This document shows positions 2,574 to 16,976 of a stretch of DNA of 16,976 nt, piece by piece. The number at the start of each line of letters is the position of its first letter. The stretch's first letter is position 1. This DNA comes from a virus (taxonomy: Duplodnaviria > Heunggongvirae > Uroviricota > Caudoviricetes), in the IMG/VR virus record IMGVR_UViG_2913112809_000005; one strand, written 5' to 3'. A program made the position numbers and the translations under genes. The notes beneath the pieces are model-generated. The model did not search any database. It had not been told where the DNA came from and saw only the letters and a program-made list of their open reading frames with translations.

Positions 2574-2577
2574 ATTT

Positions 2578-4131
2578 TCACCATGATATTTTTACAAAGC
2601 CATCTGAGCCGCGTCCGCCGGAAAAAGATGCTGATGTTTGATTATTTGCTGCACTACCACCAGCACCACCGGCACCATAACCAACGGCATTACCTCCGTT
2701 AGAAAGGGCTAAACCAATCCCCCCTAGGCCATATAGTGAATTCATTCCATTCCCACCAGGAGCAGAGTGTTGGTCAACCATGGTATTCCCACTACCGTTT
2801 CCACCTGTTCCCCCGTAAGCTACGCTGTCAGCAAATGATGAGTTCCCGCCTTGCATGCCATCTGAGGCATGAACATTCCAAAGAATACCTCCAGTTGATC
2901 CCATCTTTGATTCTAATTTTCCCCCTTGACCACCTACACCTCCCGCTCCGACAGTGACAGCGTAATTTGTTCCTGGAATGACTGTGACTATTGATAATTT
3001 TGTTTCTCCGCATTGACCGCCAAAACCCTGCGTACTATATGGAAAACCAGAGTTGCCTTTTGCGTATCCACCGCCACCGCCACCGCCTCCGCCACCGAGC
3101 ATTTCTATAAAAAGTAAGGACACCCCATCAGGAACAGTAAACGTTCCATTGGTGGTAAAGAACTGGATGTGAGAATTCGTTGACCTACTATATGCAGCAT
3201 TAGCCTTATCTATTGCCGCCTTCACCGCGCTCGGTGTCGCCGCCTCCGTCGTACTGTTGCTATCCGTCGCGTTATTAAGCTTCACAATCCCTTTTTGTGT
3301 CAGGGTACCATCCGGAACACCCGTAATCTGTCCCCAGGGATGCGTATGACTACCCGCAGCTTTACTATTCGCCAGGTCATACGCCGCCTTAACCGCGCTC
3401 GGTGTTGCCGCCTCTGTCGTGCTGTTGCTATTGGTTGCGTTATTAAGCTTCACAATCCCTTTTTGCGTCAGCGTACTATCTGGTATATCAGTAATCTGAC
3501 TCCAGGTATGACGATGATTTCGAGCCTCAATCATTGCCGCTTTCACCGCTTTTGGCGTAGCCGCTTTGGTTTCGTCATCACTGTCAGTGGCGTTACTCAA
3601 CTGTGTAAAGCCTTTTTGCGTTAACGTAGCATCAGGATGATTAGTCGAACGCTCATGTTCATCCAGTTGTGAATCAACATAATCCCGTGTTGCCAGTACA
3701 ATACTGGGGTCAACGGTGAGTGTTACCGCAGCCGTGTTGGACACTTCCATAATGAGACGAATGCAAACTTGCTTACCGCAGCCGCCGGGTAATAGCGGTT
3801 TATACGATTCCGGGAATTTACCGATAGCGATCAATTCACCATCAGTATCATAAACGCCAACTTCACGTACATACCAGCCGCCGATATTTTCGGGCAGCAC
3901 GAGTTCCGCAATTAACCAGTTAGGGTTATTTGGTGCAACTGTTAATGTATTTAAATCACCGCGCCATACTTCATGGCGTAATTTAGTTTGGCTGACGGTG
4001 GGTTCATAATATTGTCCTCCGCTGTCGCCAACAGCCATTTTTTGTAGATGAAGCTGTTTTTTATCCGCCAGAGCATTGGCAATTTTTGCCATTCCCCTGT
4101 CGGTGAGTAGAGTATAAAACTCATTATCCAT
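2578..4131 (-). CDS. Tail fibre protein (P2 gpH-like N-terminal baseplate-attachment domain, tandem fibre repeats, glycine-rich C-terminal tip)
   Basis: 517-aa ORF. N-terminus (MAVGDSGGQYYEP...HEVWRGDL...IAELVLPENIGGWYVREVGVYD...ESYKP) matches the conserved P2 gpH / Mu S N-terminal domain. Three tandem repeats of TLTQKG(I/F)..L.NAT.S...EAATP.AVKAA follow. C-terminal about 180 aa is extremely Gly-rich, including a run of 10 Gly. Confidence 0.85.
   Translation of the reverse strand: MDNEFYTLLTDRGMAKIANALADKKQLHLQKMAVGDSGGQYYEPTVSQTKLRHEVWRGDLNTLTVAPNNPNWLIAELVLPENIGGWYVREVGVYDTDGELIAIGKFPESYKPLLPGGCGKQVCIRLIMEVSNTAAVTLTVDPSIVLATRDYVDSQLDEHERSTNHPDATLTQKGFTQLSNATDSDDETKAATPKAVKAAMIEARNHRHTWSQITDIPDSTLTQKGIVKLNNATNSNSTTEAATPSAVKAAYDLANSKAAGSHTHPWGQITGVPDGTLTQKGIVKLNNATDSNSTTEAATPSAVKAAIDKANAAYSRSTNSHIQFFTTNGTFTVPDGVSLLFIEMLGGGGGGGGGGYAKGNSGFPYSTQGFGGQCGETKLSIVTVIPGTNYAVTVGAGGVGGQGGKLESKMGSTGGILWNVHASDGMQGGNSSFADSVAYGGTGGNGSGNTMVDQHSAPGGNGMNSLYGLGGIGLALSNGGNAVGYGAGGAGGSAANNQTSASFSGGRGSDGFVKISW
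3068..3097 (-). repeat. Imperfect hexanucleotide (GGTGGC/CCGCCA)n tract encoding a Gly10 run inside the tail fibre gene
   Basis: Plus strand reads ccaccgccaccgccaccgcctccgccaccg; on the coding strand this is GGT GGC GGA GGC GGT GGC GGT GGC GGT GGA. Confidence 0.8.
3185..3640 (-). repeat. Three tandem, diverged 150-170 bp repeats inside the tail fibre gene (phage tail-fibre repeat units)
   Basis: Near-identical DNA blocks are visible (e.g. ccgcgctcggtgtcgccgcctccgtcgt...ttattaagcttcacaatccctttttgtgtcag versus ccgcgctcggtgttgccgcctctgtcgt...ttattaagcttcacaatccctttttgcgtcag). The protein shows three copies of the TLTQKG...EAATPSAVKAA unit. Confidence 0.8.
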
Positions 4132-4133
4132 AA

Positions 4134-4781
4134 TTACTCCGGGTAAATAGATGTAATTTCAAGGCTCCATTGCCCTGTTCCGTAATAAATCGATGTGTTG
4201 TGCTGTACTTCCCGTATCTGGAAAGGTAAAACCGTCGTCAGTTCACCACCATAAAGTGCACAGCCAATAACAGGAATAGCACTTTGGTTAATGATCCAGA
4301 CGATTAATGCTTCCAGTTTTGAACGTGTGTTTTTATATTCATGAATGAGTTCTACCAAATCATTGAAAAGGTTTTCATCCATACCTTTATCCACCAGCTC
4401 TATATCCACCTTAAAAAAATAAGCCCTTCCCCCATATTCAAACCATTCTGAAATAGTTCCGGGTAATGAGAGTATTTCCAGCACCCGCCGCACCGCCCAA
4501 ATTGTTCCTTTATATTTATGCAGTTCAATGGCTTGTTTAATTAACTCGCGTTTCTCCCGCTCATCGGTGGTAAATAACCAACCTTCCAGCCCCTGAACGT
4601 GAAATTGTTCTGCAAGGGCTGGTAATGCCGAAGCATCAACCAGGTCGACCAGATAAACCATCAACGCCGTCAGATCGAGTTGGGCAAAACGCTCGGCGGC
4701 GATGTTTGCCAGAATGGAAAAACGCTCATCGCTGGCAAGCGGCGGCGGTGGCAGCAATTTATCCATCGCTGACTCCGGCAA
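4134..4781 (-). CDS. Baseplate protein, P2 gpI family (Mu gp48-like)
   Basis: 215-aa ORF with the characteristic N-terminal LLPPP..S....LA motif of gpI-family proteins; sits between gpJ and the tail fibre. True start may be the internal Met at about 4766 (MDKLLPPPP), which would remove the overlap with gpJ. Confidence 0.8.
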   Translation of the reverse strand: MPESAMDKLLPPPPLASDERFSILANIAAERFAQLDLTALMVYLVDLVDASALPALAEQFHVQGLEGWLFTTDEREKRELIKQAIELHKYKGTIWAVRRVLEILSLPGTISEWFEYGGRAYFFKVDIELVDKGMDENLFNDLVELIHEYKNTRSKLEALIVWIINQSAIPVIGCALYGGELTTVLPFQIREVQHNTSIYYGTGQWSLEITSIYPE

Positions 4782-5874
4782 TCGTGACGTCTATTGCGGT
4801 GCATTCCGCCCACTCATGCGCCTGCAAAATACGTTTTGTAGGCATATTCAGCGCAACGTCATAGACGCCATCGACCTGTAACACTTTGATTATCTGGTTT
4901 GGCACAATGTCCTGCCCCAGATGTTTCTGCCGCTGTTGCGTCCAGAGGCTAATCGCTTTACGCGCCGCAGCCAGCGTTGTCTCCTGATCGGCGGTGGTAA
5001 ACAGCATTAGCTGCGCACGGATCTCATACGGCACTCGAAGAGCGCATTTCGCACTCACTTTGTCGGTCAGCGGACGTTTTTTCTCCTTGCTAACCTCCTG
5101 TTCAATTTGCGCGAGCAGTTCCACTCCCGGCAGACCATTCAGCGTTAGCGGGTAGATCTCCACGCAGCCTTCTGGCAATCCCTCGTCCGGCCCCAGTACT
5201 GAAACGTCAATAATCGACTGGCTAACAGAAAGCGTATGGAAGCGGTATGCGCCATAGCTGCCCGCATTACTAAAGCTTTCTGGTGCCAGTTGGATACGCT
5301 GGCGCAATGCGTCATCGCTCTCTTCACCGCAGCCGCCCGTTGACGCAGTCAGGTTGGTTACGTTGATGTCATAATGACCAATCCTGTCGACCAGTGCGCT
5401 AATTTGTGCAGGCTGCCAGCCGTTACCCTGTTCACCTGCTGCGAGGCTGGTGGCAGGAACGGCGATATGCAAACTCCTGGCCGGAAGCAGAACATCTTCA
5501 TCGGTGGCGAACATCACGCTATCAGAGGCACTGGCCCGCGTCCCCTGGGGAATCAGGATATTGCTGGTATACGCACTGACGACCGAAAACTGCAACGTCG
5601 TTTTTGCCGGTTGTGCAGGCAAACGGTGAACGCCCACCAGCTCCCCTAAATAATCCAGCATTGGCGCGCGGGAATACGCGACCAGGTTTTGTTTCGCCGC
5701 TTCCTGAATGGCGATGCGTACAAGGTTTTCACGATAGGCAAACAGGTCGATGAGCAACCGCTCAGCCTGTGCAGGATAGAGTTTTTTACCGCTGGCATCT
5801 TCGTATTGCGCAATCATCTCACTGGTAATTTGCGCTGGATCGCGGTCAATAAAATTGGGTTCGGCTATCGCCAT
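4759..5874 (-). CDS. Baseplate protein, gpJ family (Mu gp47-like, T4 gp6-like wedge)
   Basis: 371-aa ORF in the conserved position between gpW and gpI; size and order match Baseplate_J proteins; overlaps both neighbours in the operon. Confidence 0.8.
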   Translation of the reverse strand: MAIAEPNFIDRDPAQITSEMIAQYEDASGKKLYPAQAERLLIDLFAYRENLVRIAIQEAAKQNLVAYSRAPMLDYLGELVGVHRLPAQPAKTTLQFSVVSAYTSNILIPQGTRASASDSVMFATDEDVLLPARSLHIAVPATSLAAGEQGNGWQPAQISALVDRIGHYDINVTNLTASTGGCGEESDDALRQRIQLAPESFSNAGSYGAYRFHTLSVSQSIIDVSVLGPDEGLPEGCVEIYPLTLNGLPGVELLAQIEQEVSKEKKRPLTDKVSAKCALRVPYEIRAQLMLFTTADQETTLAAARKAISLWTQQRQKHLGQDIVPNQIIKVLQVDGVYDVALNMPTKRILQAHEWAECTAIDVTIAGVSDG

Positions 5875-6224
5875 AACACCTCCGTTGAGTTGATTACGCC
5901 GTCAGCGGCGCGCCATTGCACACGTAACGTCAGATGTTCACCGTCGATTACAGGTGTCACCTTCAGCAACCGACAGCGCGGTTCCCACTGGCGAATGGCT
6001 TCCACCGACTCCCGTACCACATGCGGGATTGCCCGCTCGATGGGGTAATCGATGTAGTGCCACAAATTGCTGCCAAACAGCGGTCTGTGGGGATCACTGC
6101 CGCGCGGTGTACGCAGAATGATGTGTATTGCCTGGTGAATATCATCCAGTCCGCAGACGTATTTTTCAGGCCGCTGCAAGGCCGGTTGCCAGTGCAGCGT
6201 TGAGGGTCGTGTTTTTGTGTTCAT
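5865..6224 (-). CDS. Baseplate protein, GPW/gp25 family
   Basis: 119-aa ORF of the size and position of P2 gpW / T4 gp25 / Mu gp46 homologues, between the spike and gpJ. Confidence 0.75.
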   Translation of the reverse strand: MNTKTRPSTLHWQPALQRPEKYVCGLDDIHQAIHIILRTPRGSDPHRPLFGSNLWHYIDYPIERAIPHVVRESVEAIRQWEPRCRLLKVTPVIDGEHLTLRVQWRAADGVINSTEVLWR

Positions 6225-6297
6225 GAGGGTATTTTCGCCCTGAACGGGCTGCGGGGATATTAAAGCGATTTAGAAAACTGATTGATTAAAAAGAGAA

Positions 6298-6317
6298 AAC
6301 CCGCCATCAGGCGGGTT
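6298..6317 (-). terminator. Intrinsic terminator/attenuator between gpV and gpW
   Basis: 8-bp GC-rich stem AACCCGCC-tgat-GGCGGGTT, 5 nt downstream (minus strand) of the gpV TGA stop at 6323-6325, followed on the minus strand by TTCTCTTTTTAATCAATCAGTTTTCT. Confidence 0.6.
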
Positions 6318-6322
6318 AAACG

Positions 6323-7024
6323 TCAGTGTGAATGGTGGTTGGAGTTGCCACCGCTGTCCTGCAATGCGCCGCTGGCCTGAACGTTGCCGATCACGTTGAC
6401 ATTGCCAGTTATTGTGGCGGCGTTACCGATGCCTCCACTTCCTGCCATCCCGCCAAGCCAGGTGAGTTTTTTCATTACCGTCACGTTACCAGTAAAGGTG
6501 CTCATGGGCGCATCTACCGTCACTGCTGCCGCTTTAACATCGACCTTAGTGGCGTCGATGCTGACATCGGTCGCTTTAACATCGACAGTATCGGAAGTCA
6601 CGATGACCTGTTGGGCTTTAATCTCAACGTTGGGCGATGTCAGGCTGGTACGGTCGATAACCTCAATCACGATTTTCTCGATACCGCCGTTAATCGTCAG
6701 CTGGTGCGTGCTGCGGTCATATTCAAACGCTGCGCCATCAGAAAACTGGACGTAACGTTTATCGCGCGAGGCCACAGGCGCGGTGTCAACCGTAGAATAA
6801 ACTGCGCCCAGCACCACGCCATCTTCACCGTTATTGTCCAGCAGAACTTCCACTTGCTCGCCCATATCCGGTAGCCAGTAGTCTTTATTGTCCTGGGAAT
6901 TGCGTTGAAGTACCGCAAGCCAGTTGCTCTTCAGATTGTCACACTCCGGAAGCGTGACTCGCACCCGAACGCTGGTTTCGTCAATATCGCTGATAATCCC
7001 CGTTTGCCGGGTTACTCCTTTCAT
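6323..7024 (-). CDS. Baseplate central spike, gpV family (Mu gp45-like), with His-rich C-terminal tip
   Basis: 233-aa ORF with an N-terminal OB-fold-like region and a C-terminal repetitive beta-helix-like segment (VDVKATDVSIDATKVDVKAAAVTVDA), ending ...GGNSNHHSH. AGGAGG RBS 7-12 nt upstream. Confidence 0.8.
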   Translation of the reverse strand: MKGVTRQTGIISDIDETSVRVRVTLPECDNLKSNWLAVLQRNSQDNKDYWLPDMGEQVEVLLDNNGEDGVVLGAVYSTVDTAPVASRDKRYVQFSDGAAFEYDRSTHQLTINGGIEKIVIEVIDRTSLTSPNVEIKAQQVIVTSDTVDVKATDVSIDATKVDVKAAAVTVDAPMSTFTGNVTVMKKLTWLGGMAGSGGIGNAATITGNVNVIGNVQASGALQDSGGNSNHHSH

Positions 7025-7033
7025 ATTTCCTCC

Positions 7034-8074
7034 TTACTGGCTGGTCGCTGGCCCGCGCGACACGTCGATTTCAGTGGTATAGCCGCTGCGCACAAAACTG
7101 TGAGTCGATTTATCAATCAGCCACTGACCGGAAAGCACGCCAAAATCGGTCAGTTCAATTTTATTGCCCGCCGTCAGATCCGGGCAGCCCATCATTGTGA
7201 GCGTTCCGGTTTGCTGATATTCGTTGTGGCTGTCGAGTGCAGCGTTGGCCTTTGCCTGTGCTGCGCCAACGTCCGTCGCCCGACTGTTCAGTTTTAGCGT
7301 GTCGGCACTGGTGCCGACTCCACGGGCAGACGGTTTTTGCTGGCTGTCGTGAGTGTAGATAACCAGTTCTTTTTTCTTACTATTTTGATGCTGTACGGTG
7401 GCGTTTTTGTAGATACGGTTAATGGTATCTTTGAAGGTGAAATGCGAAACGTCTTTGCGGTTGATCTTTTTAACCGACGCCAGGCAGCGCAGCGTGGGTA
7501 AATGCGAAAAAATCAGCTCTTTGGTGCTCACCTTTACTGCATAGCCATATTCGCAGGCCAGGCGCTTGAGAAATCCAACATCGGTTTCGCCGTACTGTGT
7601 CACCCGGTCAATCGTCAGCGGCTCGATTTTGCCCACCAGCTTTAGGCCGTGAGTTTGTGCGATACGGCTGGCGATAGCCGAAAGCGTCGTTTCTTCAAAA
7701 CCCTGGCTGTTACGGGTGCGCAGCGCCTGATTGACGGAAGTGGCGATGCCATCAATATTTACCGTAGAAGGTGGCGCTGAAATGTCGATTTTATCAATAA
7801 TATACTGACCACAATCGAGCAGCTTTTCCCCCTGATAACCCATATGCAGCGCCAGCGTATCGCCTTTGCCGGGATACCACTCTTTTATCCAGCGTCCATC
7901 AGTGTCATCCAGTGTAATTGCGATGGTATCTGACTCGTTTTTGATGCTGTCGTGGTAACTGATGCTGGTGACATAGGGTGTGATGTCATAAGTGATATCT
8001 TTATGCCCATACCAGAGGGTAAAAATGGGCGTGAGTGTGGCAAAGACGCCACCAGTTACGCTTATCTCAGCCAT
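7034..8074 (-). CDS. Baseplate hub protein, P2 gpD family (late control gene D protein; Mu gp44-like)
   Basis: 346-aa ORF of the size and position of gpD/gp27-like hub proteins, directly before the spike. Confidence 0.8.
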   Translation of the reverse strand: MAEISVTGGVFATLTPIFTLWYGHKDITYDITPYVTSISYHDSIKNESDTIAITLDDTDGRWIKEWYPGKGDTLALHMGYQGEKLLDCGQYIIDKIDISAPPSTVNIDGIATSVNQALRTRNSQGFEETTLSAIASRIAQTHGLKLVGKIEPLTIDRVTQYGETDVGFLKRLACEYGYAVKVSTKELIFSHLPTLRCLASVKKINRKDVSHFTFKDTINRIYKNATVQHQNSKKKELVIYTHDSQQKPSARGVGTSADTLKLNSRATDVGAAQAKANAALDSHNEYQQTGTLTMMGCPDLTAGNKIELTDFGVLSGQWLIDKSTHSFVRSGYTTEIDVSRGPATSQ

Positions 8075-8274
8075 GGTGGGATCTCCGATAAGGTTTTATT
8101 GACGGAAATGACCGGAATAATGAGCTGAATACCGGAAGGCAGCACCGGGTAAATGGCGACATGTGGATTGGCGGCGATTATGCGTTCATAAGCCAGCGCA
8201 TCACCGTAGTAATGCCATGCCAGATTATCCCAGCGTTCGCTGTCGGTGGTGATATGTTCAAGGTATCGCATCAC
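8062..8274 (-). CDS. Tail protein X (P2 gpX family, LysM-like)
   Basis: 70-aa ORF containing the conserved gpX motif (WD.LA..YYGD....E.II.ANP); ATGA-type overlap with the upstream gpU-like gene. Confidence 0.75.
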   Translation of the reverse strand: MMRYLEHITTDSERWDNLAWHYYGDALAYERIIAANPHVAIYPVLPSGIQLIIPVISVNKTLSEIPPWLR

Positions 8275-9224
8275 CAGCTCCTCGTAATGGTCGCGGCAGC
8301 AAACTGGCTCACTGTGGGAGTGGTTTGTTGTACCGTTGTTCGTGCCTGATCAACCAACGTTGCGGCTTTATCGAACGTCGCTTGGGCGATGCCGCTGGTA
8401 ATGTCGTCGAAAAGCGCCTGAGCATGGTCAACCAGCGTACTGGCGTCATTGGCGCAGTCCCGGATACCTGGCATGTTACCCAGTAAAGCTTTAATCTGCG
8501 CCGACAACGCTTTTGGGAGTCCTGCCAGCGTTTGCAGATCCGTTGGCTGTTTAAACAGGGTTTCGATGGCGTCGATTGTCTTTTTCAATGACGTAATTAT
8601 CTTTTCACACTTTTCTTTTAACGCTTTGGCCTCTTTAATCATTGCTTTCACTTTTGCCACCGTTTTTTTAATATCTTCAATGGCTTGTGTCAGTTCATCC
8701 AGCATCTCTTTGGCCTTACGCATACCTTCTTCAATGGCGTTTAATATCTGATCAAACCAGGACTCCACCATGTCGGGAAAATTGCTCGCCTTTTCCTCAA
8801 TGTTAGGCTCCTGGGTGGTAATCGCCGGAGGTAAAAGTGGATTTTTAGGATCGCCGGTGTACTCCTGGAGCGACATCGTTCCGTTTTGGGCAATCACATT
8901 GCCCCAGGGATCGGTGTGCTGGTGGGTGGCGGTTAGCTCTGTAATTACAAACCAGCCGCGATAATCGCCATTGCCAAATACCAGTGCCATCGCCTTGTGA
9001 GCAAGCATGGCTTCACGCAGTCGATTCAGCTCTGTTGTGGGCTGGCAAAACTGGCTGTGCAGGGAAAATTCCAGCGCCAGTATATCCAGCTTATCGCCAA
9101 TAAACTGCACGCCGGGCTTGCCTTCTATACGGGCATGTGTGGCGTAATCCACGCCCATTGTGCTTTTAAAGCCGTCCCAGAATGTGACAACCTTAAATTC
9201 AATCTCTCCTAAAACGGCATACAT
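8271..9224 (-). CDS. gpU-like tail protein with a roughly 175-aa C-terminal alpha-helical/coiled-coil extension
   Basis: 317-aa ORF. First about 140 aa follow the P2 gpU pattern (M..LG...F......F..........G.P..QF.G...D...L...L......L..L...........G.G...G.FVITEL). The remainder is Lys/Glu/Ala-rich with heptad-like periodicity (KAKEMLDELTQAIEDIKKTVAKVKAMIKEAKALKEKCEKI...). Stop/start overlaps the tape measure gene. Confidence 0.7.
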   Translation of the reverse strand: MYAVLGEIEFKVVTFWDGFKSTMGVDYATHARIEGKPGVQFIGDKLDILALEFSLHSQFCQPTTELNRLREAMLAHKAMALVFGNGDYRGWFVITELTATHQHTDPWGNVIAQNGTMSLQEYTGDPKNPLLPPAITTQEPNIEEKASNFPDMVESWFDQILNAIEEGMRKAKEMLDELTQAIEDIKKTVAKVKAMIKEAKALKEKCEKIITSLKKTIDAIETLFKQPTDLQTLAGLPKALSAQIKALLGNMPGIRDCANDASTLVDHAQALFDDITSGIAQATFDKAATLVDQARTTVQQTTPTVSQFAAATITRSW

Positions 9225-11584
9225 CAGGCATACCCCCGGCGCTGTTGTTGCGCCATTACGTCGTTAATTATTCTTTCCAGTTCGCGTTTACTCATCGTCA
9301 ACACGTTCTGAATCTCTTTAGTATTGTTTGGTCCGTTACCCTGCACGGTAATCTGTGGCGAAAAAGTCACCTGGACTTTTCCAGGGGAACGGGAGGGTAG
9401 CGTCGCCGGTTTGGTTACGGATTTATCTGGTAAAGAGGTCGACGCGAGTTTTGCGGCAGGCACTGATGACGGCGTTGTCGTTTTGCTGGATGGCGCGAGT
9501 TGTTTCCCCACTGGAGGCGTTAAAATCGCACCGGCAACGCCTGGAACAACGGTCGCGGGGGAGACTGAGGCAGAATTAGTGGTGCCTGTAGCAGCCGCAG
9601 CCGATCCTTCTGTGCTGATACCCATTGTGGATTTTAGCCAGTCTGGTATGGCGTTTTTGACCTGGTCAATAATGCCTTTCAGAGCGGGAAAAGCATTCAT
9701 TATGCCGTCAGCCAGGCTACCCAGTATATTGCTGCCGAACTCGCTAAAACTCGCAGGCATCTCAACACCAAACCAATTCATCACTCCGGCAAAGGCGCTG
9801 TAGAACAGCCCCAGTGGCGACCAGTCGCAAATCAAACGGCTAATACCAGCAATACCGCCATTAAAGGCCGTTGTGATACGCAGCCAGATGGCGGAAAAGA
9901 ACCTGGAGATAGGTTCCCAGTTGCGATAAATCAGATAAGCAGCGCCCGCAATCGCAGTGATGACCAGACCAATGGGATTCATCAATAACACCCGGCCTAG
10001 CGAGAGAACGGTTCGACCAACCAGTTTCAATGCTCCGAGCAGGCTACGACCAAGCAGTTGCGTTAGCCATTTTGCGCCGCCACCCAATGACTTAACCGCC
10101 GATAACACCTTACTCGCTGCGCCGCCGAGCGCCAGACTTGCCCTGACTTTCAGGAAGATATCGACCAGACGAATTAACGGCGAGGCGATGAAGTTCGCGC
10201 CCAGCTTTAAAACATTCAGCGCGCCGTTAAACAGCCAAATCGCCCCGACGATTTTCGCAATGTTTTGCACCAGCGCCGGGTGTTCACGTAGCCATGCGCT
10301 GAACTGGCGAACAACCGGAGTAAGGCTTTGCGCCAGCTCGCCAATCAGCGGCATTAATTGCAAGCCAATGCTGAGCCATAAATCATTTAACGCCAGCTGT
10401 AACGCTTTAGTTTGTTCAATGGGCGAGGCCATCTGCGCAGAAAAGTCAGCGTCAATCAGATTCTTACTGCTGGCTTGCATGGCAGAGGCTTTTAACTGGC
10501 GATATTCCTCCATATTCGCCAGCACAGGTGCCAGGAATTCCACTGTTTGCGCATCGCCGAACATTTCGCCCAGATTAAACTGCGTCACCATCGATTGCAG
10601 CGCAGTGCTGCGAGCAGATAAATCTTCAATCTTCATGGTGCGTTTGAAGGTGTCGAGGATCGCCGGATTCATCTTCTCAAGCTGCATTTGCACGATATGA
10701 GTCATGGCTTCGCTAACACCCATACCGTTTTGCTGATGCTCAAGCAGAGAACCTTGCAGATCAACGCCCTGGCTGGCGAACCAGTTATCGGTTTTTTTCG
10801 AAAAGGTGGTTTGCAGAAAGTGGTCGAAATTCTCCGCCGCCGCACTGGCACTGGCCCCGTTTTTTATGGCGATCTGCATGGTGGCGGTCAGTTCAGCCAT
10901 ACCTTCCAGACCCTGAGCGCCGATTTTACCTGCAAATTTCTCTATCCACTGCGTTTGTTCGGCAACGGCAGGCCCACCGCTTTTGCTAATGCCATACATC
11001 ATGTTTTGCGCGGCGTGGAAATTTTCTGGGGCAATATTCAGTCGATCATGAGTCGCGAGCGCGGCATTCGCCCACGTTTCAGCACTTTCGCGCGTGGCGG
11101 TGGCAGCTTTGGCGATCTCCGGCATATAACGGTTGAGATCCTGCATCGACGACAAATTGCCTTCGATCAGCGTTTGGGCTGCGTTCTGTAAGGTGGTCTG
11201 CTGCTGGTTAAAATCCATGCTCCAGCCGCGCAGATTAAGGCTGAGCGTCTCGCGGGTTGTAGCATTCATCCCACCTTTGGTCGCCATATTGACCATGTTG
11301 TCCTGGAACTCATATGGCAACTTCCAGTCGGGGGCTTCAACATTGAATACCTTGCTAAATTGCCCGGCAAATGTTTGGGTTTTCTCCATTAGATCAGCGC
11401 GGTTCCGGCTATTTTCCTCCAGGCGGAGAGCAGAATCGGCAAGTTGCTGCGTTAGTTTGATTACTGTCGCTTGCTGAGAAGAGAGAGCTAACAAAGTTCT
11501 GGCGTTGAGTGAGCCGTAACGGGCTATTGCCTGCGTCAACGTCTCATTACGCGCCTGAAGCTGGGTAATAATATCGTTGGCCAA
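9224..11584 (-). CDS. Tail tape measure protein
   Basis: 786-aa ORF, largely alpha-helical with internal hydrophobic segments, between the chaperone gene and gpU as in all long-tailed phages. Apparent initiator is TTG at 11584; the first in-frame ATG is about 66 codons in, so the exact start is uncertain. Confidence 0.85.
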   Translation of the reverse strand: MANDIITQLQARNETLTQAIARYGSLNARTLLALSSQQATVIKLTQQLADSALRLEENSRNRADLMEKTQTFAGQFSKVFNVEAPDWKLPYEFQDNMVNMATKGGMNATTRETLSLNLRGWSMDFNQQQTTLQNAAQTLIEGNLSSMQDLNRYMPEIAKAATATRESAETWANAALATHDRLNIAPENFHAAQNMMYGISKSGGPAVAEQTQWIEKFAGKIGAQGLEGMAELTATMQIAIKNGASASAAAENFDHFLQTTFSKKTDNWFASQGVDLQGSLLEHQQNGMGVSEAMTHIVQMQLEKMNPAILDTFKRTMKIEDLSARSTALQSMVTQFNLGEMFGDAQTVEFLAPVLANMEEYRQLKASAMQASSKNLIDADFSAQMASPIEQTKALQLALNDLWLSIGLQLMPLIGELAQSLTPVVRQFSAWLREHPALVQNIAKIVGAIWLFNGALNVLKLGANFIASPLIRLVDIFLKVRASLALGGAASKVLSAVKSLGGGAKWLTQLLGRSLLGALKLVGRTVLSLGRVLLMNPIGLVITAIAGAAYLIYRNWEPISRFFSAIWLRITTAFNGGIAGISRLICDWSPLGLFYSAFAGVMNWFGVEMPASFSEFGSNILGSLADGIMNAFPALKGIIDQVKNAIPDWLKSTMGISTEGSAAAATGTTNSASVSPATVVPGVAGAILTPPVGKQLAPSSKTTTPSSVPAAKLASTSLPDKSVTKPATLPSRSPGKVQVTFSPQITVQGNGPNNTKEIQNVLTMSKRELERIINDVMAQQQRRGYA

Positions 11585-11675
11585 AATTGTTTCTCTTTAA
11601 TTATTGATAATGGCCCACTGGTTATTTTTCTAAAAAAGGGGCTGGGAAGAAATAAACCTGGCGGGCTTTGAAGAA

Positions 11676-11698
11676 CTCGCAGACATCAGGTCTGCGAG
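11676..11698 (-). other. Strong stem-loop in the gpE-tape measure intergenic region
   Basis: Perfect 9-bp inverted repeat CTCGCAGAC-atcag-GTCTGCGAG; on the minus strand it encloses the stop codon (11686-11688) of the +1 frame that overlaps the 3' end of the gpE gene. Confidence 0.6.
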
Positions 11699-11773
11699 CC
11701 ATATTCGATCTTTATTTGGTCGCTGGCTTCATCCAGCCAGTTGCTAAAGTCATCTATGGTGAGCGCGTCTATC

Positions 11774-12091
11774 TCACTGGGTGGAAAGCGAAACCATCTC
11801 GCCAGTAGCGCCATTGCCTGCCATAGCTGGGGAGGATTCTGTAACCACGGTAAGCATGGATTGAAATCGTTTCTGCAATGCCTGGTAATCCAGCAAATCC
11901 ATTTCAGCTAAATCTTCTGGCACCAGTCCGGTCATCGCCGCCATTAGCGGTTCATCCCACTCTTCGGGTTTTTCGCTGATCCGGCGCGCGTTGCGCATAT
12001 CTTTTACTTTCAGGCGACGTAATTGCAGCGAGTCGATAGTATTTCCTGCTGCCGACGTAAATGGGAACTGTAAGATATAATGCTCTTTCAT
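11774..12091 (-). CDS. Tail assembly chaperone, P2 gpE family
   Basis: 105-aa acidic ORF between the tube and tape measure genes, the conserved position of the frameshifted chaperone pair. An alternative reading frame stays open past its stop (see findings). Confidence 0.7.
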   Translation of the reverse strand: MKEHYILQFPFTSAAGNTIDSLQLRRLKVKDMRNARRISEKPEEWDEPLMAAMTGLVPEDLAEMDLLDYQALQKRFQSMLTVVTESSPAMAGNGATGEMVSLSTQ

Positions 12092-12117
12092 TTTGTATCC
12101 TTATTTATGTTGCGAAG

Positions 12118-12137
12118 TTCGGGGCCGTAGCCCCGAA
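12118..12137 (-). other. Stem-loop immediately downstream of the tail tube gene
   Basis: 8-bp GC-rich inverted repeat TTCGGGGC-cgta-GCCCCGAA between the tube stop (12141-12143) and the gpE start (12091); no clear U-tract follows, so more likely an mRNA-processing/stability or partial-attenuation element than a full terminator. Confidence 0.45.
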
Positions 12138-12140
12138 TAA

Positions 12141-12665
12141 TTAGCCACCGATGTTATTGCGATAGGTACTTAATTGATCCACGCCGTTAACCCGAAAAAT
12201 ATTCGCCATATAATCAAGTTCAAGCAGCGTTTCACCATCGACCACTTGCTTAATATAAGTACAGCCAAAGGCGCTGCTGAATTCCGGGTTTTCATTCTGT
12301 TTAAATGTGCCCAGTGGATTCTTTTTAAACATCACGGTTAAATGTGTCACTAACGCTAATTGATTCGCTTTCCCCTGGGAGTTATAGCAATCAATACTGG
12401 AGCGGCACTGTAATGCTACCGCCTGCCACGGGTTTGCCGTTTTACGCATTACGTCCTGATAAAAGGAGTTCCATTTAATTTCCCCCTCCAGTTTATCGAA
12501 ACCAGCCGGGAGTTCGATTTTGCCGACCATACCCAGTGCCTTATGCTCTTGCATAATTAAACTGACATCAGGCAATTTAATTTCGGTTGCACGACCTAAA
12601 AGGTTATTACCATCGAGATAAATATTGGCGTTGGTAATACGGTTAATTTGAATTTTTCCAGCCAT
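12141..12665 (-). CDS. Tail tube protein (P2 FII family)
   Basis: 174-aa ORF; size and N-terminal pattern (N.N.YLDG...LG...EIKLP) match FII-type tube proteins; start overlaps the sheath stop. Confidence 0.8.
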   Translation of the reverse strand: MAGKIQINRITNANIYLDGNNLLGRATEIKLPDVSLIMQEHKALGMVGKIELPAGFDKLEGEIKWNSFYQDVMRKTANPWQAVALQCRSSIDCYNSQGKANQLALVTHLTVMFKKNPLGTFKQNENPEFSSAFGCTYIKQVVDGETLLELDYMANIFRVNGVDQLSTYRNNIGG

Positions 12666-14095
12666 TAGCTATTGCTCTCCAGAGAGACTAAATATTCAGA
12701 AGTAATTTCAGTTTCAAACGTCAGACGTTCCAGCGGCGGCGGCGGGGTGAATTTATAGCTCAGCAATAAATGACCGGCGCTGAGTTCAGCCGGTGAATTT
12801 CGTGCCGGATCGTACCAGCACTCAAAGCCAAGCAGTGCGCCGTCGGCAATTAGTTTTCGGCCCCAGGTATTTACCGATTCGGTCAGTGCGTCAATAATTG
12901 CCTGATTAATAGGCATATCAATATACTGCTGACTGAAATAACGGATTGACTCATTGATTACATCGCCTGTCCGGCGGACGTTTTCAAAGTTACGCATATG
13001 GGTCACGGTAGGCCATGCCGCTGTGCGGTTACCCCACAAGCGCAGACCAGAACCGTAACTATTGAAAATAGTGGTAATGCCGTTTTCGTTGAGCTGATTC
13101 ACTTCGCTTTGTGGATCATCAATCATTGCGGAAAGCGAACGTTCAATACCGGTAATACCCTGAATTTCCTGGTTTGAGTTGCTCCACCAGAAACCTTTTT
13201 CGAGGTCTACTTTGGCACGTAGCCCGGCAGCGCGCGAAGAGAGTGGTTCGAGAACTTCCTGGTTAGTGATGCCATCGTAAACTTTGACGTGTGGGTAACA
13301 TAAACGCACACGATCAGAGCTGGTATTGAAGTTGATAGCCCCTTGCGAACCGCGTCCAGCCAATACCTGCTGGAATGTCGTCCCAATCGGAGCATCAATG
13401 TAGGTAATCGCACCGAGTTTTTCCGCTTGTGCAATCAGCTCAGTAGTTACTGATTTTTGCGTACAAAACACGGGAGCAAGCAGGATTTTGGCGTAGAAAC
13501 CGTACAGGTTATAGGTGTCCTGAAGGAGTTTCATCCCCGTGCGGTCGCCTGCGGTATTTAGGGCACCGATAATATCGGCTGCGGTGACCTTTGTAGGGTC
13601 GCACCAGGAATAATAGGCGCAAACTTTCGCTCCAGGAGGAATGTCGGCTCCTTTACGAGTGATTATGCCTGTTTGTTCATCTACGCTAAATGCTGTGGTG
13701 TTAAAGGTTGATGAATTTGATGAAGAGGGCTTTAGTACCACGTTACGCACATTGCGGTGAGCGAGCTTCGCCTGGTTGTTAGCATCAAAAGTGATACTCT
13801 CATTGCTGATGCTGGAGCTATGTTTTGCCGGATCCAGCACGTTAATCACCACCACCGTACCGGCACCGTGGTCATAAATCGCCTTCAGTGCCTGTGGGAT
13901 CGTAAAGTTAGCCAGAGTCGAGCCAAACTGCGCAGCATCGCTTTCAGAAAGACATAATGTTGGTTTATTTACCGGACCACAGGGGGCCGTACCGATTAAA
14001 GCGATGACGGCGGATTTTACCGCTTTAACCGGACGAGGGCCGGTTTCAATTTCAATGGTTTCTACACCGTGCAGGTAATTAGCTGCCATGTACAA
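12665..14095 (-). CDS. Contractile tail sheath protein
   Basis: 476-aa ORF directly upstream of the tube gene; size and position are typical of myovirus sheath proteins (P2 FI / Mu L class). Confidence 0.85.
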   Translation of the reverse strand: MYMAANYLHGVETIEIETGPRPVKAVKSAVIALIGTAPCGPVNKPTLCLSESDAAQFGSTLANFTIPQALKAIYDHGAGTVVVINVLDPAKHSSSISNESITFDANNQAKLAHRNVRNVVLKPSSSNSSTFNTTAFSVDEQTGIITRKGADIPPGAKVCAYYSWCDPTKVTAADIIGALNTAGDRTGMKLLQDTYNLYGFYAKILLAPVFCTQKSVTTELIAQAEKLGAITYIDAPIGTTFQQVLAGRGSQGAINFNTSSDRVRLCYPHVKVYDGITNQEVLEPLSSRAAGLRAKVDLEKGFWWSNSNQEIQGITGIERSLSAMIDDPQSEVNQLNENGITTIFNSYGSGLRLWGNRTAAWPTVTHMRNFENVRRTGDVINESIRYFSQQYIDMPINQAIIDALTESVNTWGRKLIADGALLGFECWYDPARNSPAELSAGHLLLSYKFTPPPPLERLTFETEITSEYLVSLESNS

Positions 14096-14276
14096 TTTCC
14101 TCTACGTTATTTTGTTCTTCCTGAGTGATGACAGGAGTCAGATGATTGCGGGCAATCATGGTTATGACCCACTCGTTGTCTTCTGGCAGATCAATTTCAC
14201 TGTTCGGCCACAATAAGATTTCTTGTCCGTCGGCAAGGGTGACGCCGCTTGCCGGGCCGTTGTAGATGTATTTCAT
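14079..14276 (-). CDS. Small conserved tail-region protein (Mu gp38-like position)
   Basis: 65-aa ORF, coupled by a 4-nt overlap to the upstream gene and overlapping the sheath start. Confidence 0.45.
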   Translation of the reverse strand: MKYIYNGPASGVTLADGQEILLWPNSEIDLPEDNEWVITMIARNHLTPVITQEEQNNVEEIVHGS

Positions 14277-14728
14277 TCAGTTTCCTCGTAATTAACTTCC
14301 GTAAGCAGGGGAAGATCCGTGCTTTCCTGTTCAGCGATAAACAGCGAGCTGGTCGCCATTTCCAGGATGTAGCGGCAGAAACCGCCGCTCTCACCCGTAT
14401 TAATTTCTTTTTCAAGCCAAAGCAGACGATCGCAATCAGGAAGCTGAAGGCCACCCAATGCTCTGCGTATGCGATCAAGAGCGTTTAACGCGTCACAATT
14501 TTTGCCAACAATAACGGTGGCGGTTAAGCGGAGTATTTGCTGTTGCACGATGGCATCACTGCTTTCGGGCGTGGCAAAGAAAGAACCGCTATAATTAATA
14601 ATCACTGCAACTTGCTGTGTCTGTGGAATATATTTCTGGGCATCCGTAGCTGAAATAAATACGTCCATTTCGGGGTTGTGTTCACGTAATCTGGTCACAA
14701 CAGAATTCATTACAGATAAAATTTCCAT
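14273..14728 (-). CDS. Putative tail completion/terminator-type protein (Mu gp37 / DUF1834-like); first gene of the tail operon
   Basis: 151-aa ORF with an AGG-containing RBS upstream; position and N-terminal pattern (ME.L..M...VV.RL) recall Mu gp37-family proteins. Functional call is tentative. Confidence 0.45.
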   Translation of the reverse strand: MEILSVMNSVVTRLREHNPEMDVFISATDAQKYIPQTQQVAVIINYSGSFFATPESSDAIVQQQILRLTATVIVGKNCDALNALDRIRRALGGLQLPDCDRLLWLEKEINTGESGGFCRYILEMATSSLFIAEQESTDLPLLTEVNYEETE

Positions 14729-14842
14729 ATGGGTTGTACCTTAATTACCGCTCACTTCGTTATCGTTGAAATATATTCTGAAGCAGTGAAGGTGAAGAAT
14801 CTTTTAATGTAATTTAGAGAAAAAATTGAATGGCTATAAAAA

Positions 14843-14870
14843 ATCCCCACACTTACGTAAAGGTGGGGAT
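14843..14870 (-). terminator. Intrinsic terminator after the lysis cassette (potentially bidirectional)
   Basis: 8-bp stem ATCCCCAC...GTGGGGAT with an internally palindromic loop, beginning 4 nt after the TAA stop at 14875-14877; followed on the minus strand by TTTTTATAGCC and on the plus strand by GTATTTAATA. Confidence 0.7.
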
Positions 14871-14874
14871 GTAT

Positions 14875-15189
14875 TTAATAGCTGCCACGTTGTAACAGCT
14901 CGATTTTGCTATATAAGGCATCCAGCTTTGCTTCTAATACTGCTTGCCCACGAAGATAATCTTCTCTGCGGACATAATGCAGCGGAAGCTCGGCACGAAA
15001 TTCAAGAAACTCTCTTTCCAGTTTCGACCAACTTGTTTCTGATTCCCTGCGGGCATTTTCCAGAGACTCAAAACGCTCATTAAGTCGTTTTTCAATTTGC
15101 GCTAACAGCAGTTTTCCGGCAGCAAACATTAATCCAACGAAGGAAAGCATAAGGGAGATCACTTCCCAAAAATCGATACTGAGTTTCAT
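14875..15189 (-). CDS. Membrane-anchored coiled-coil protein, candidate spanin-like/lysis accessory protein
   Basis: 104-aa ORF with one N-terminal hydrophobic helix (FWEVISLMLSFVGLMFAAGKLLL) followed by a charged helical region; GAGGGG RBS; directly downstream of the lysin gene. Confidence 0.45.
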   Translation of the reverse strand: MKLSIDFWEVISLMLSFVGLMFAAGKLLLAQIEKRLNERFESLENARRESETSWSKLEREFLEFRAELPLHYVRREDYLRGQAVLEAKLDALYSKIELLQRGSY

Positions 15190-15201
15190 CGGCCCCTCTG
15201 A

Positions 15202-15807
15202 TTAGTGAAGACAGCTTGCCTGTCCCCAGAGTAAATAGCGGGCGGCGTGTAGATAGAGGATCATCTTTGGATAGCGACGATTTTCTCGCCAGTTAGCAGC
15301 GCTGCGCCCGGCGTTGACTCGCTCGACATGACCAAACCAGCTAGTGGCATCTAACCCTTTGGATGCAGCTAGTTTTTTATCCCGGTTAACCCACCCCTGA
15401 CCGCCGTTATAGGCGCTTAGGGTAAACGCCATACGCTGACAGTCATTTTTCGCAGAGATGTTTTTCCACAAATGCTGGTCATATTGCACCAGCGCGCGAA
15501 TCGCCCAGGTTGGGTTATACGGTTTGTTTTCACGCAATTGTGGATACAACTGGCTTATCCATGTCGCTGTAGCAGGCATAAATTGCGCCATACCTTGTGC
15601 GCCAACGGGGGAACGTACCATTGGCTGCCAGGCGGACTCCAGGTGTAATTGCCCGGCAAAGTCGGCCACTGGGGCATTCAGCCCCCAGACTTCTCGAGCG
15701 GTACGAATTAGTTCGTTTCGCCATGCCAGAGAGGCTCGCGGCGGTTCAGAGGCGTTAAGCGGGAAAAGAACGAAAATAATCATAGACGCGATATATTTCA
15801 GCCACAT
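15202..15807 (-). CDS. Lytic transglycosylase (SLT domain) lysin with N-terminal signal/SAR-like hydrophobic leader
   Basis: SLT catalytic motifs LHLESAWQP and AQGMAQFMP. Best start is ATG at 15807 (MWLKYIASMIIFVLFPLNA...), 2 nt after the stop of the upstream membrane-protein gene; the longer ORF to 15885 would overlap that gene by 76 nt. Confidence 0.7.
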   Translation of the reverse strand: MWLKYIASMIIFVLFPLNASEPPRASLAWRNELIRTAREVWGLNAPVADFAGQLHLESAWQPMVRSPVGAQGMAQFMPATATWISQLYPQLRENKPYNPTWAIRALVQYDQHLWKNISAKNDCQRMAFTLSAYNGGQGWVNRDKKLAASKGLDATSWFGHVERVNAGRSAANWRENRRYPKMILYLHAARYLLWGQASCLH

Positions 15808-15809
15808 CA

Positions 15810-16097
15810 CTATAGCCCTAAGGCGACGGAAAGACAGACGGCGGCAACGATGATGGCGCGGCGAATCATTGCCGCCGCGCAGCAACGCGGTTCCTTCCAG
15901 GGGCTAAAAGAGTCAGGCCGTGCCCAGGGGAACAAACTGCGATCGAGCCAGTATCCCAGCACCGCGGAAAGCGAAACCAGGCTTAGTTTATAAATGACGA
16001 CCGGGATCTGTGCTGAAGAGGTCCAGCCGATCACGACAAACAGCGCGACGGAAGCGACCAGCCAGCCGGAAAGCCGGGGAAAAGTGACTTTTTTCAT
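15810..16097 (-). CDS. Small membrane protein with 2-3 transmembrane segments, holin candidate
   Basis: 95-aa ORF with AGGAG RBS 8 nt upstream of the ATG; hydrophobic segments LVASVALFVVIGW, IPVVIYKLSLVSLSAVLGYWL and AIIVAAVCLSVALGL; first gene of the lysis cassette, directly before the lysin. Confidence 0.5.
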   Translation of the reverse strand: MKKVTFPRLSGWLVASVALFVVIGWTSSAQIPVVIYKLSLVSLSAVLGYWLDRSLFPWARPDSFSPWKEPRCCAAAMIRRAIIVAAVCLSVALGL

Positions 16098-16393
16098 ACG
16101 ATATCTCCTGATAAGTGAGCGTTTAGTGTCGTCAGAACCCTCCAGTGAAGAATGAAAAAAGCTTTAATAAATAAGTTTAAAAAATAGATTCTCTATAAAT
16201 GAACAAGCCCGCTAATAAATCGACTCATCAATTAAAGAGCAAAAGGTGACCTGGCGAATAAGCGCGTCATTATGCAGGGGAAAGATGATGGTGGATCGTA
16301 GGAATAGTCTATAGTTATTTGATTTTTAAAGTTTGTTTAAGAAAGTCAGCTACTGTGAGGGAAACGATCTTTTAACACTACAGGTAAAAATAA

Positions 16394-16413
16394 TACTGTA
16401 TACGTATACAGTA
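16394..16413. promoter_or_regulatory. LexA (SOS) box, near consensus
   Basis: TACTGTATACGTATACAGTA, a perfect CTGT-N8-ACAG palindrome matching the gammaproteobacterial LexA consensus TACTGTATATATATACAGTA at 18 of 20 positions. Lies in the divergent intergenic region; a TTGACA hexamer sits 21 bp to its right (16435-16440) and a TATTAT hexamer overlaps its left end on the minus strand. Confidence 0.7.
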
Positions 16414-16634
16414 TAGTGTAAAATGATACTCCTGTTGACAAGAAACATAATGCAAACAATATATTTATTTCGTGAATTTATGGCGTTCATTAATACTAAA
16501 AATTTATATTTTGGGTGATTATTTATTTGTTTGTTGAATGTATTGAGTAGCAGTAATGACAACTGCTTAGCGTATATCCGTGGTTTTACACGCATCGGGT
16601 CTTATTCAGGATGCAAGATATATGGAGATGAAAA

Positions 16635-16976
16635 ATGATACGAAAATCAAAAGAGATGGCCCGGACACCGGAGATTATTAACGACCTGGCTTTTCATGCA
16701 TCGCAAGTTCTGATTGAAAGCATCATTCTCGACAGTTCATCGGCAGAAAATGTGGGTTTTGCCATTGCCGACCGAATGATGCGTAACTGGGGCGGACAAA
16801 GCATCTATTTCCCTAAGGGGATCTCCGGACGAGCATCGGAGCGTGACTACCAAATCTATAGCGAGTGCGATGGGCGCAACTACGCTGAATTAGCGAAGAA
16901 ATATAATCTGACGCTGCAATGGATTTATAAGATAGTCAAACGTGTACATACGGAGAAGCAGCAGAGTCGTATGTAG
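16635..16976 (+). CDS. Mor/C-family transcription activator (phage Mu middle/late activator family)
   Basis: 113-aa ORF with GGAG RBS. C-terminal region (GGQSIYFPKG...ERDYQIY.ECDGRNYAELAKKYNLTLQWIYKIVKRV) closely parallels the Mu Mor/C DNA-binding region (GGGQVYIPRG...RDLRIWNDFNGRNVSELTTRYGVTFNTVYKAIRRM). Complete ORF ending with TAG at the window edge. Confidence 0.7.
   Translation: MIRKSKEMARTPEIINDLAFHASQVLIESIILDSSSAENVGFAIADRMMRNWGGQSIYFPKGISGRASERDYQIYSECDGRNYAELAKKYNLTLQWIYKIVKRVHTEKQQSRM

Follow-up and report, generated by a model that had tools for sequence, protein, structure and literature searches.

A predicted host LexA operator at the Mor/C-family activator gene of a headless phage tail cluster in enteric bacteria

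IMG/VR virus record IMGVR_UViG_2913112809_000005 is a DNA stretch of 16,976 nucleotides (the window hereafter) that carries a phage lysis cassette, a complete contractile tail module and, divergent from these, a gene for a transcription activator of the Mor/C family (mor). In the 537-bp spacer that separates mor from the divergent holin gene lies a 20-bp palindrome, which is predicted to be an operator for the LexA repressor of the host (an SOS box). We propose that LexA may act from this operator upon mor, and that the product of mor may in turn switch on the lysis, tail and baseplate genes.

A predicted LexA operator of near-consensus sequence in the mor-holin spacer

The features concerned are as follows.
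16394-16413, strand-neutral: predicted LexA operator (SOS box), TACTGTATACGTATACAGTA, assigned from consensus match and conservation
16635-16976, plus strand: mor, Mor/C-family transcription activator of 113 aa (Pfam PF08765, E=2.3e-37)
14875-16097, minus strand: lysis cassette, consisting of the holin gene (15810-16097, PF13272), the SLT lytic transglycosylase gene (15202-15885, PF01464) and the gene of a 104-aa membrane protein (14875-15189)

The palindrome TACTGTATACGTATACAGTA is perfect over 20 bp, or over 22 bp when the flanks are counted. It agrees with TACTG(TA)5CAGTA at 18 of 20 positions, both mismatches being the two central ones, and in its outer 8+8 bases it coincides with the recA operator. 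A search of the 16,976-bp window for matches with three or fewer mismatches found this one only, and none turned up in any of 200 dinucleotide shuffles. The bare motif CTGT-N8-ACAG likewise occurs once in the window, which is weaker evidence when taken alone, since it was present in 25 of the 200 shuffles. The number of 20-mers with at most two mismatches that would be expected by chance is 1.2e-5 in the AT-rich 537-bp spacer (G+C content 28-30%; calculated from the spacer's own composition) and 0.008 per 5-Mb genome. When a LexA weight matrix was applied, which was built from E. coli operators of the literature and is approximate, the box scored 24.3, the known (training) sites ranging from 12.8 to 27.1 with a median of 19.8; the runner-up in the window scored 13.6 and lacks CTG. 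The occurrence of the box is far beyond chance. A reading of the window made earlier from its letters only (the sequence-only reading) had placed a near-perfect SOS box at this position, between the lysis operon and the Mor/C gene, and on both counts it is borne out, the holin, SLT and membrane protein genes being divergent from the PF08765 gene. From its match and conservation, 16394-16413 is very likely to be a functional LexA site. A larger inverted repeat around the box (16367-16380 / 16414-16427) was dismissed, as it is off-centre and not conserved.

Conservation of the operator among syntenic loci

Loci for comparison were gathered by means of the Mor protein, not by means of the box. 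The GTDB representative genomes supplied four enterobacterial loci (Dryocola, Phytobacter and two of Superficieibacter) and 13 from Pasteurellaceae; IMG/VR supplied 25 loci of the enterobacterial type and 30 of the Pasteurellaceae type. Together with the window and one genome each of E. coli and Salmonella, the four GTDB and 25 IMG/VR loci form a set of 32, and to all of these the synteny of Mor with holin-SLT-membrane-gp37-small-sheath is common. By cluster assignment the lineages are E. coli/Escherichia sp., E. albertii, Salmonella, Scandinavium, an Enterobacter sp., Phytobacter, Superficieibacter and Dryocola.

A box of the form CTG-N10-CAG was found 220-292 bp upstream of mor in 29 of the 32 syntenic loci (22 of the 25 from IMG/VR and all four from GTDB). 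The arms CTGTAT/ATACAG are kept across seven genera and the surrounding spacer of ~540 bp diverges; in Salmonella Infantis, for example, AACTGTATATATATACAGTA stands at the homologous position. When seven sequences from five genera were aligned blind, 15 of the 20 box positions were invariant, the mean column identity of the whole spacer being 59% with long unalignable stretches. Among 23 distinct box sequences, positions 6, 8, 13, 15 and 20 were invariant without the search requiring it, and positions 9-12 varied freely. Read as a pattern of constraint, invariant arms around a variable centre are the information profile of a LexA site.

The centre itself (16402-16405, box positions 9-12) is polymorphic at all four bases, at intermediate frequency, in the Escherichia loci (L001, L020-L034), and the polymorphisms of the nearby flanks are nearly all singletons. 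Across Escherichia and Salmonella the changes in the centre are transitions only, by which the purine/pyrimidine alternation is kept, and nine of the 16 possible alternating tetramers occur. This could mean that constraint there is relaxed to DNA shape only, or that affinity for LexA is being tuned. A flipping of the operator centre, as the reverse-complement allele pairs GTGT/ACAC and GTGC/GCAC might suggest, was rejected, chance being sufficient with nine of the 16 tetramers present.

The three loci without a box (L039, L043 and L044, at about 4740-4790) belong to the Enterobacter cloacae complex and E. cancerogenus. They keep the synteny and both of the candidate Mor sites of the spacer described below (sites 1 and 2), and decayed palindromes such as CTATAATTATTATAAG are found at the aligned position; judged from this alignment, the regulation is lost or rewired in the Enterobacter cloacae-complex lineage. 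Neither the box nor the synteny was seen in the 43 Mor loci of the Pasteurellaceae type, which, judged from their sizes of ~35-42 kb alone, appear to be intact BcepMu-like prophages.

One could suppose that the palindrome is a relic or a coincidence, to which LexA may bind without regulatory effect, in a decaying prophage remnant or in an element under some other control (H-NS, Dam or unknown repressors). The Enterobacter cloacae-complex lineage has indeed lost the box and kept the cluster, DNA bound by H-NS typically has a G+C content such as the 28-30% seen here, at least one E. coli strain has pseudogenes in place of tail fibre genes, and H-NS-like proteins are reported to tune tailocin expression in Pseudomonas. 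However, seven genera keep the arms without change next to bases that diverge, no gene of the window is broken, and the chance expectation is 1e-5, so that this explanation appears very improbable. It might also be thought that the palindrome is the operator of another dimeric protein, either Mor itself or a repressor encoded elsewhere, and merely resembles an SOS box; it is, after all, a perfect palindrome amid several other conserved sites of unknown ligand. But the conserved positions are exactly those contacted by LexA (CTGTAT/ATACAG) with the centre free to vary, the candidate Mor boxes are a different motif made of A/T only, and host LexA would be expected to bind such arms anyway. We regard this as extremely unlikely.

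Promoters overlapping the operator

The seven aligned spacers were scanned with a sigma-70 weight matrix. Only two positionally conserved promoter predictions were obtained in the spacer, and both overlap the box. They are given here with a hexamer that the sequence-only reading had named.
16396-16424, plus strand: candidate sigma-70 promoter for mor; -35 CTGTAT (16396-16401, inside the box), 17-bp spacer, -10 TAAAAT (16419-16424)
16395-16422, minus strand: candidate leftward promoter; -35 TTTACA (16422-16417), 16-bp spacer, -10 TACAGT (16400-16395, inside the box)
16435-16440, plus strand: TTGACA hexamer, replaced by GTGAAG or similar in other genera

The rightward pair CTGTAT-17-TAAAAT is kept in six of the seven aligned sequences and is the sole rightward prediction whose position is conserved; the leftward pair TTTACA-16-TACAGT is kept in all seven. 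TGTAAA beside the box is invariant in the seven-sequence alignment and is replaced in the Scandinavium lineage, the right flank of which lacks the TGTAAAAT block. In Scandinavium a TAAAAT stands instead 7 nt to the left of the box, and the box would therefore lie at about +1 to +20 of a rightward promoter.

The sequence-only reading had assigned the regulated promoters otherwise, to a plus-strand TTGACA 21 bp to the right of the box and to a minus-strand TATTAT overlapping its left end. Both hexamers are there, the latter at 16395-16390 with a 2-bp overlap, but as regulated promoters neither holds, for they are confined to Escherichia. TTGACA is not conserved and has as partners only CAATAT at 16 bp or TATATT at 19 bp; TATTAT is not conserved either, and the nearest -35-like hexamer is 21 bp away from it.

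LexA would control one or both of these conserved promoters. The operator may serve the leftward promoter TTTACA-16-TACAGT, with a start near 16388 and a transcript of ~290 nt into the holin/lysis operon, either in place of mor or besides it, as a shared operator like that of uvrA-ssb. Among the conserved predictions it is the leftward pair that scores highest; it is found in 7/7 aligned sequences, its -35 (TGTAAA on the plus strand) is invariant in that alignment, and no predicted terminator separates the box from the holin gene. Several considerations nevertheless favour the promoter directed to mor. First, the scan of the seven spacers gave no other conserved promoter between the box and mor, and if LexA acted on the leftward promoter instead, mor would be left without any. 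Secondly, the holin gene has a conserved proximal promoter region of its own (-10 GATACT or GACACT with an invariant upstream box), which is homologous to the late holin promoter of phage PhiKM. Thirdly, the sequence from the box to that holin promoter, which would be the leader of the leftward transcript, is unconserved and variable in length. Fourthly, the Scandinavium lineage is without TGTAAA, and its TAAAAT again puts the box on a rightward promoter. Finally, it would make no sense for damage to fire lysis if the activator on which tail synthesis depends were not made. On this evidence the box probably controls mor, and the activator rather than the lysis operon is favoured as the target of LexA. 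Control of the leftward promoter, with mor or in its place, seems possible at a clearly lower level of likelihood, and dual control of two back-to-back promoters is a real possibility.

As to the putative mor leader, Rfam gave no match in it or in the rest of the spacer, and no conserved RNA structure was found in it, the single predicted helix being broken in the window itself. An 81-aa open reading frame at 16350-16595 (minus strand) was rejected as a gene, since it has no family and the region has frame-breaking indels. The short reading frames of E. coli and of Salmonella that begin at the ATG conserved after TAAAAT bear no relation to each other (by eye), and matches to sites for integration host factor in site 2 and in the leader are partial and not conserved (by eye). 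A 19-nt direct repeat of 79% identity links 16312-16330, the upstream half of site 2, with 16520-16538, a conserved A/T block of the leader (TATTTATTTGTTTGTTGAA).

The activator and its candidate promoters

By its matches the window protein clearly belongs to the Mor/C family. It matches Mor of phage Mu (1RR7, 8.6e-8) and also C of Mu, the alignments covering residues 59-120 of Mu Mor and 69-130 of Mu C. The linker GG..Y.P.G is invariant, the linker residues of Mor/C proteins being those listed in PMC2582627, and NWGGQSIYFPKG is invariant or nearly so. The protein thereby fits the description of the family, which comprises small proteins of about 100-150 aa that have this linker and a C-terminal helix-turn-helix. 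The nearest phage relatives are BcepMu gp01, its counterpart in phiE255 and 'C' of PhiKM (44-48% identity), and an identical protein is on record from Escherichia sp. E4742.

Promoters that depend on Mor/C proteins lack a good -35; they combine a -10 element with an imperfect 16-bp dyad that has its centre at -43.5 (PMC2582627). The following elements were identified.
14775-14824, minus strand: candidate late promoter of the tail operon; box TTTTTCTCTAAAT-TAC-ATTAAAAG (14824-14801), 20 nt, -10 CAGAAT (14780-14775), no -35
6280-6231, minus strand: candidate late promoter of the baseplate operon, upstream of W; box TTTTCTAAAT-CGC-TTTAATAT (6280-6257), 20 nt, -10 GAAAAT (6236-6231)
14838-14868, minus strand: intrinsic terminator behind the lysis cassette; CCCCAC..GTGGGG and then a run of T, conserved in the alignment
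6316-6287, minus strand: terminator after gene V, read from the sequence
16125-16187, minus strand: site 1, candidate promoter region of the holin gene; late-type box TTTTTAAAC-TTA-TTTATTAA (16183-16164), -10 GACACT (16130-16125)
16321-16368, plus strand: site 2, putative Mor-dependent autoactivation promoter; box TTTTTAAAG-TTTG-TTTAAGAA (16321-16345), 19-20 nt, -10-like AACGAT (16363-16368)

The architecture of a Mor/C-type promoter is found by sequence alone at both gp37 and W, each with a conserved dyad that has its centre near -42.5 relative to a conserved nAnAAT and with no -35, and PhiKM has the same geometry. At the gp37 promoter ATTAAAAG and its spacing to nAnAAT are invariant in seven loci from five genera. 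The W promoter element is present also in Salmonella, and in PhiKM with identical geometry. Each of the two late promoters is preceded by an intrinsic terminator. No more than 6 nt separate the -10 of the W promoter from the start codon of W (ATG 6224), no Shine-Dalgarno sequence is visible (6222-6236), and the same tight geometry is seen in PhiKM (L076, ~17415-17425) and Salmonella (L002, ~5155-5170). This arrangement predicts that the W mRNA is leaderless or nearly so.

In the mor-holin spacer, the block of site 1 is the most conserved of all, with 23 bp near-invariant. The holin -10 is GACACT in the window and GATACT or CATACT in other genera, and the holin promoter of PhiKM (L076, 2385-2440) has the same box, placed 20 nt from its -10. 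The footprint of site 2 is present in all lineages, the box-less Enterobacter included. On a late-box matrix trained on the gp37 and W boxes, site 2 of the Dryocola and Enterobacter loci scored 16-17, above the 95% point of the null (14.4). It is plausible, from these comparisons, that sites 1 and 2 are Mor boxes. If site 2 is Mor-dependent, its transcript would cross the LexA operator at about +20 to +39, which would make a LexA-gated positive feedback.

Around site 2 a conserved block, GTGAGG.AA.CGATCTTTT, lies at 16352-16376, just upstream of the LexA box, with a GATC inside the -10-like AACGAT. The same region holds three GATC within 35 bp in Salmonella (L002, 18565-18615) and two in Phytobacter, and a DNA adenine methylase is encoded in the early region of PhiKM. 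Dam methylation could affect the putative site 2 promoter.

Gene content, distribution and ancestry of the element

The window is 95-99% identical to a chromosomal island of 197 of 5,426 complete E. coli genomes (~3.6%), where the island sits between yjbD and lysC. The homologous island of Salmonella, STM4198-STM4219 of LT2, also adjoins lysC and is present in many serovars, the Salmonella loci numbering several hundred; E. albertii and a number of further enteric genera carry the cluster as well, whereas E. coli K-12 lacks it. Apart from the lysis cassette, the annotation of which agrees with RefSeq for the homologous E. coli locus L001 and the order of which matches BcepMu gp21, gp22 and gp25, one large feature fills the window.
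1516-14728, minus strand: complete contractile tail module, identified by Pfam matches, one of them to the Gp37 family, with the gene order of BcepMu gp37-gp52

Its genes are, in order, Gp37, a small protein, sheath, tube, chaperone, tape measure, gpU-like, X, D and V; after the V terminator come W, J, I, the tail fibre (517 aa), a DUF4376 protein and a 151-aa protein. Genes for a head, a terminase, a portal, a transposase, an integrase or a repressor are absent from the window, and the annotated loci, followed from yjbD or STM4198 to lysC, contain no repressor and no other phage genes.

In BcepMu and in PhiKM, a phage of E. coli, the late region runs holin-SLT...[head genes]...gp37-gp38-sheath...fibre, an order collinear with that of the window. 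The Mor/C gene of these phages stands at the far end of a divergent early operon, just after gemA, and no credible LexA box was found in either of them, the matches being at chance level, GC-rich and inside genes. The arrangement of the window is obtained exactly if the early region (repressor to gemA) and the head block are deleted from a BcepMu-like phage. By its gene content and order the element derives from a transposable phage of the BcepMu-like (Bcepmuvirus) kind and is domesticated and headless. Its gene set is that of an R-type tailocin, for which the element is a candidate, and particles would presumably be produced.

Where the phage head genes (the equivalents of BcepMu gp26-gp36) are missing, at 14729-14874, there is a clean 146-bp spacer with the terminator and then the gp37 late promoter, and it is not scar-like. 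The possibility that the 537-bp spacer is a decayed remnant of gemA or another early gene was discarded, as tblastn gave only chance-level matches for the early genes tested. The tail fibre gene (2578-4131; collar, fibre repeats and glycine-rich domain) is intact in the window and is annotated as two pseudogene fragments in E. coli 23CRST029 (L001, 6985-8232); not all carriers can make functional particles. Beyond the tail cluster, positions 1-1047 (minus strand) carry a family-1 (GT4) glycosyltransferase gene that runs off the left end, and the corresponding flank of E. coli 23CRST029 has slipin-family and nucleotidyltransferase genes instead, so the cargo at the left border varies. In Salmonella the terminator of gene V and the late promoter of W are separated by an inserted gtrABC operon for O-antigen glucosylation (L002, 5157-8480), with a ~40-bp repeat, ccggcccggtaagcgcagaagcgccaccgggcaaa, at both ends of the insertion.

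Proposed regulatory cascade

That the LexA box couples a Mor/C module without repressor to DNA damage had been suggested in the sequence-only reading, and the suggestion gains support from the arms kept in 29 of 32 loci, the lack of a repressor gene and the lack of the box in the intact relatives. The mechanism that we propose is the following. In the undamaged cell, host LexA would bind 16394-16413 as a high-affinity operator and occlude the overlapping promoter, most probably CTGTAT-17-TAAAAT, so that no Mor is made. Upon DNA damage, LexA cleavage stimulated by RecA would free the promoter and Mor would accumulate. Mor would then bind A/T-rich dyads of the form TyTAAA-N3-4-WTTAA near -43 at promoters devoid of a -35, namely those of the tail operon (14824-14775) and of the baseplate/fibre operon (6280-6231), and it would probably act also at the lysis operon (16187-16125). 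Tail particles would be made and the cell would lyse. The box at 16321-16345, upstream of the operator, may provide a Mor-dependent positive feedback which is still gated by LexA. Sequence and comparison show the operator and its conservation, the gene content, the descent from a phage and the common architecture of the promoters; LexA binding, the repressed promoter, the action of Mor at its boxes and the production of particles are what we infer. The full cascade, from LexA through mor to the lysis, tail and baseplate operons, is reasonably likely.

A number of observations weigh against this proposal. The leftward promoter pair surpasses the rightward one in its hexamers and equals it in conservation, so that the direction of control may differ from the one favoured here. 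CTGTAT is a weak -35 for the rightward promoter, and the mor leader would be ~205 nt long without conserved structure. The Enterobacter cloacae-complex lineage retains the cluster without a recognisable box, hence LexA control is dispensable or replaceable. With respect to the Mor boxes, sites 1 and 2 in the window score 7-12 (site 2, 11.7), which is within the AT-rich null (95% point 14.4), and their assignment consequently rests on conservation and on the comparison with PhiKM. The box of the holin promoter is 31-33 nt from its -10, a distance that exceeds the one at the other late promoters by ~11 bp, or roughly a turn of the helix; the extra turn is filled by a semi-conserved TTTTCnTTCTTC, and the longer spacing might weaken or delay activation of the lysis genes relative to the tail genes. 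Lastly, the literature that could be searched, most subscription journals being outside it, shows no LexA binding, start-site or expression data for the locus. Within the same limits, no description was found of such a wiring of LexA to a late activator, nor of the regulation of STM4198-4219 or of the E. coli island. A paper on an E. coli ST131 'tailocin' gave no match for lysC or LexA and nothing on regulation of the locus, and the one paper naming STM4219 did so in a motility screen only.

A bolder and more speculative version of the proposed cascade may also be put forward, which we hold only tentatively and consider less likely than not to be correct in all its parts. LexA might be the sole 'immunity repressor' of the element, its operator having arisen at the late-activator gene when the early region was lost; readthrough from site 2 might form an SOS-gated positive-feedback switch to suicide lysis; drift of the operator centre might set the thresholds of the lineages; and the Enterobacter cloacae complex might have been rewired away from this control.

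Comparison with known systems

Within the LexA regulon of E. coli (recA, sulA, umuDC and the colicin operons), the operators are 20-bp palindromes CTGT-N8-ACAG which have an alternating purine/pyrimidine centre and overlap promoter hexamers. The box of the window is such a palindrome with such a centre, the hexamers which it overlaps are those of the two candidate promoters, one in each direction, and its predicted strength falls in the upper range of known LexA operators. What differs is the gene downstream, here a phage activator of the Mor/C family, so that control of the structural genes would be indirect and two-tiered. The colicin operons resemble the element in that a lethal weapon coupled to lysis is gated, but there LexA sits directly on the toxin and lysis genes.

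A damage-inducible activator is known from Pectobacterium, where the RecA-RdgA-RdgB circuit induces pectin lyase, carotovoricin and lysis through RdgB, and where the carotovoricin cluster, like the present element, has no repressor gene of its own. RdgB is Mor-like, and RdgA is a dedicated repressor of the cI/LexA type. A BcepMu-like phage has a homologue annotated 'RdgB'. The Pectobacterium circuit uses RdgA as a private sensor, whereas here the operator for host LexA is at the activator gene itself. In the PrtR/PrtN control of the R/F-pyocins of Pseudomonas aeruginosa and in the MpsR/MpsA/MpsH system of Stenotrophomonas, a repressor acts on an activator and the activator on tail and lysis genes, with induction by SOS, as is proposed here. 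The pyocin system, however, has a private LexA-like repressor and an activator unrelated to Mor/C; in the present element the global repressor of the host would be on top.

With phage Mu Mor/C and the Bcepmuvirus activators (BcepMu gp01, PhiKM C) the element shares the protein family and late promoters with a dyad near -43, a -10 and no -35, and with the Bcepmuvirus phages also the late gene order. In BcepMu and PhiKM, in contrast, the activator is last in an early operon under a phage repressor and has no LexA box; here the early region is missing and a LexA operator is found instead. Prophages with LexA-controlled genes are familiar, examples being tum of coliphage 186, the Gifsy antirepressors, GIL01 and CTXphi. 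In all of them host LexA binds inside an element of phage origin and sets its induction, as we propose for the window, but a phage repressor or cofactor is still used, whereas here LexA appears alone on the late activator of an element that does not replicate. SOS induction of tailocins and colicins is already the rule, and the new point would be the direct wiring of LexA to a Mor/C activator.

Implications

The surprise is limited, since SOS-induced tailocins are expected; the novelty is in the wiring and not in the principle. If the proposal is true, it would explain how a widespread, uncharacterised tail cluster is silenced and fired without a repressor encoded by the element, and mor would newly join the LexA regulon. 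Defined promoter elements, namely the operator and the Mor boxes, would be at hand for the engineering of inducible tailocin production, and Salmonella LT2 offers a genetically easy model in which the prediction is directly testable. It is further suggested that fluoroquinolones and other SOS inducers may trigger tailocin release and lysis in these enteric bacteria. The element would then be a compact example of domestication, in which the global damage sensor of the host is wired straight to a phage late activator.

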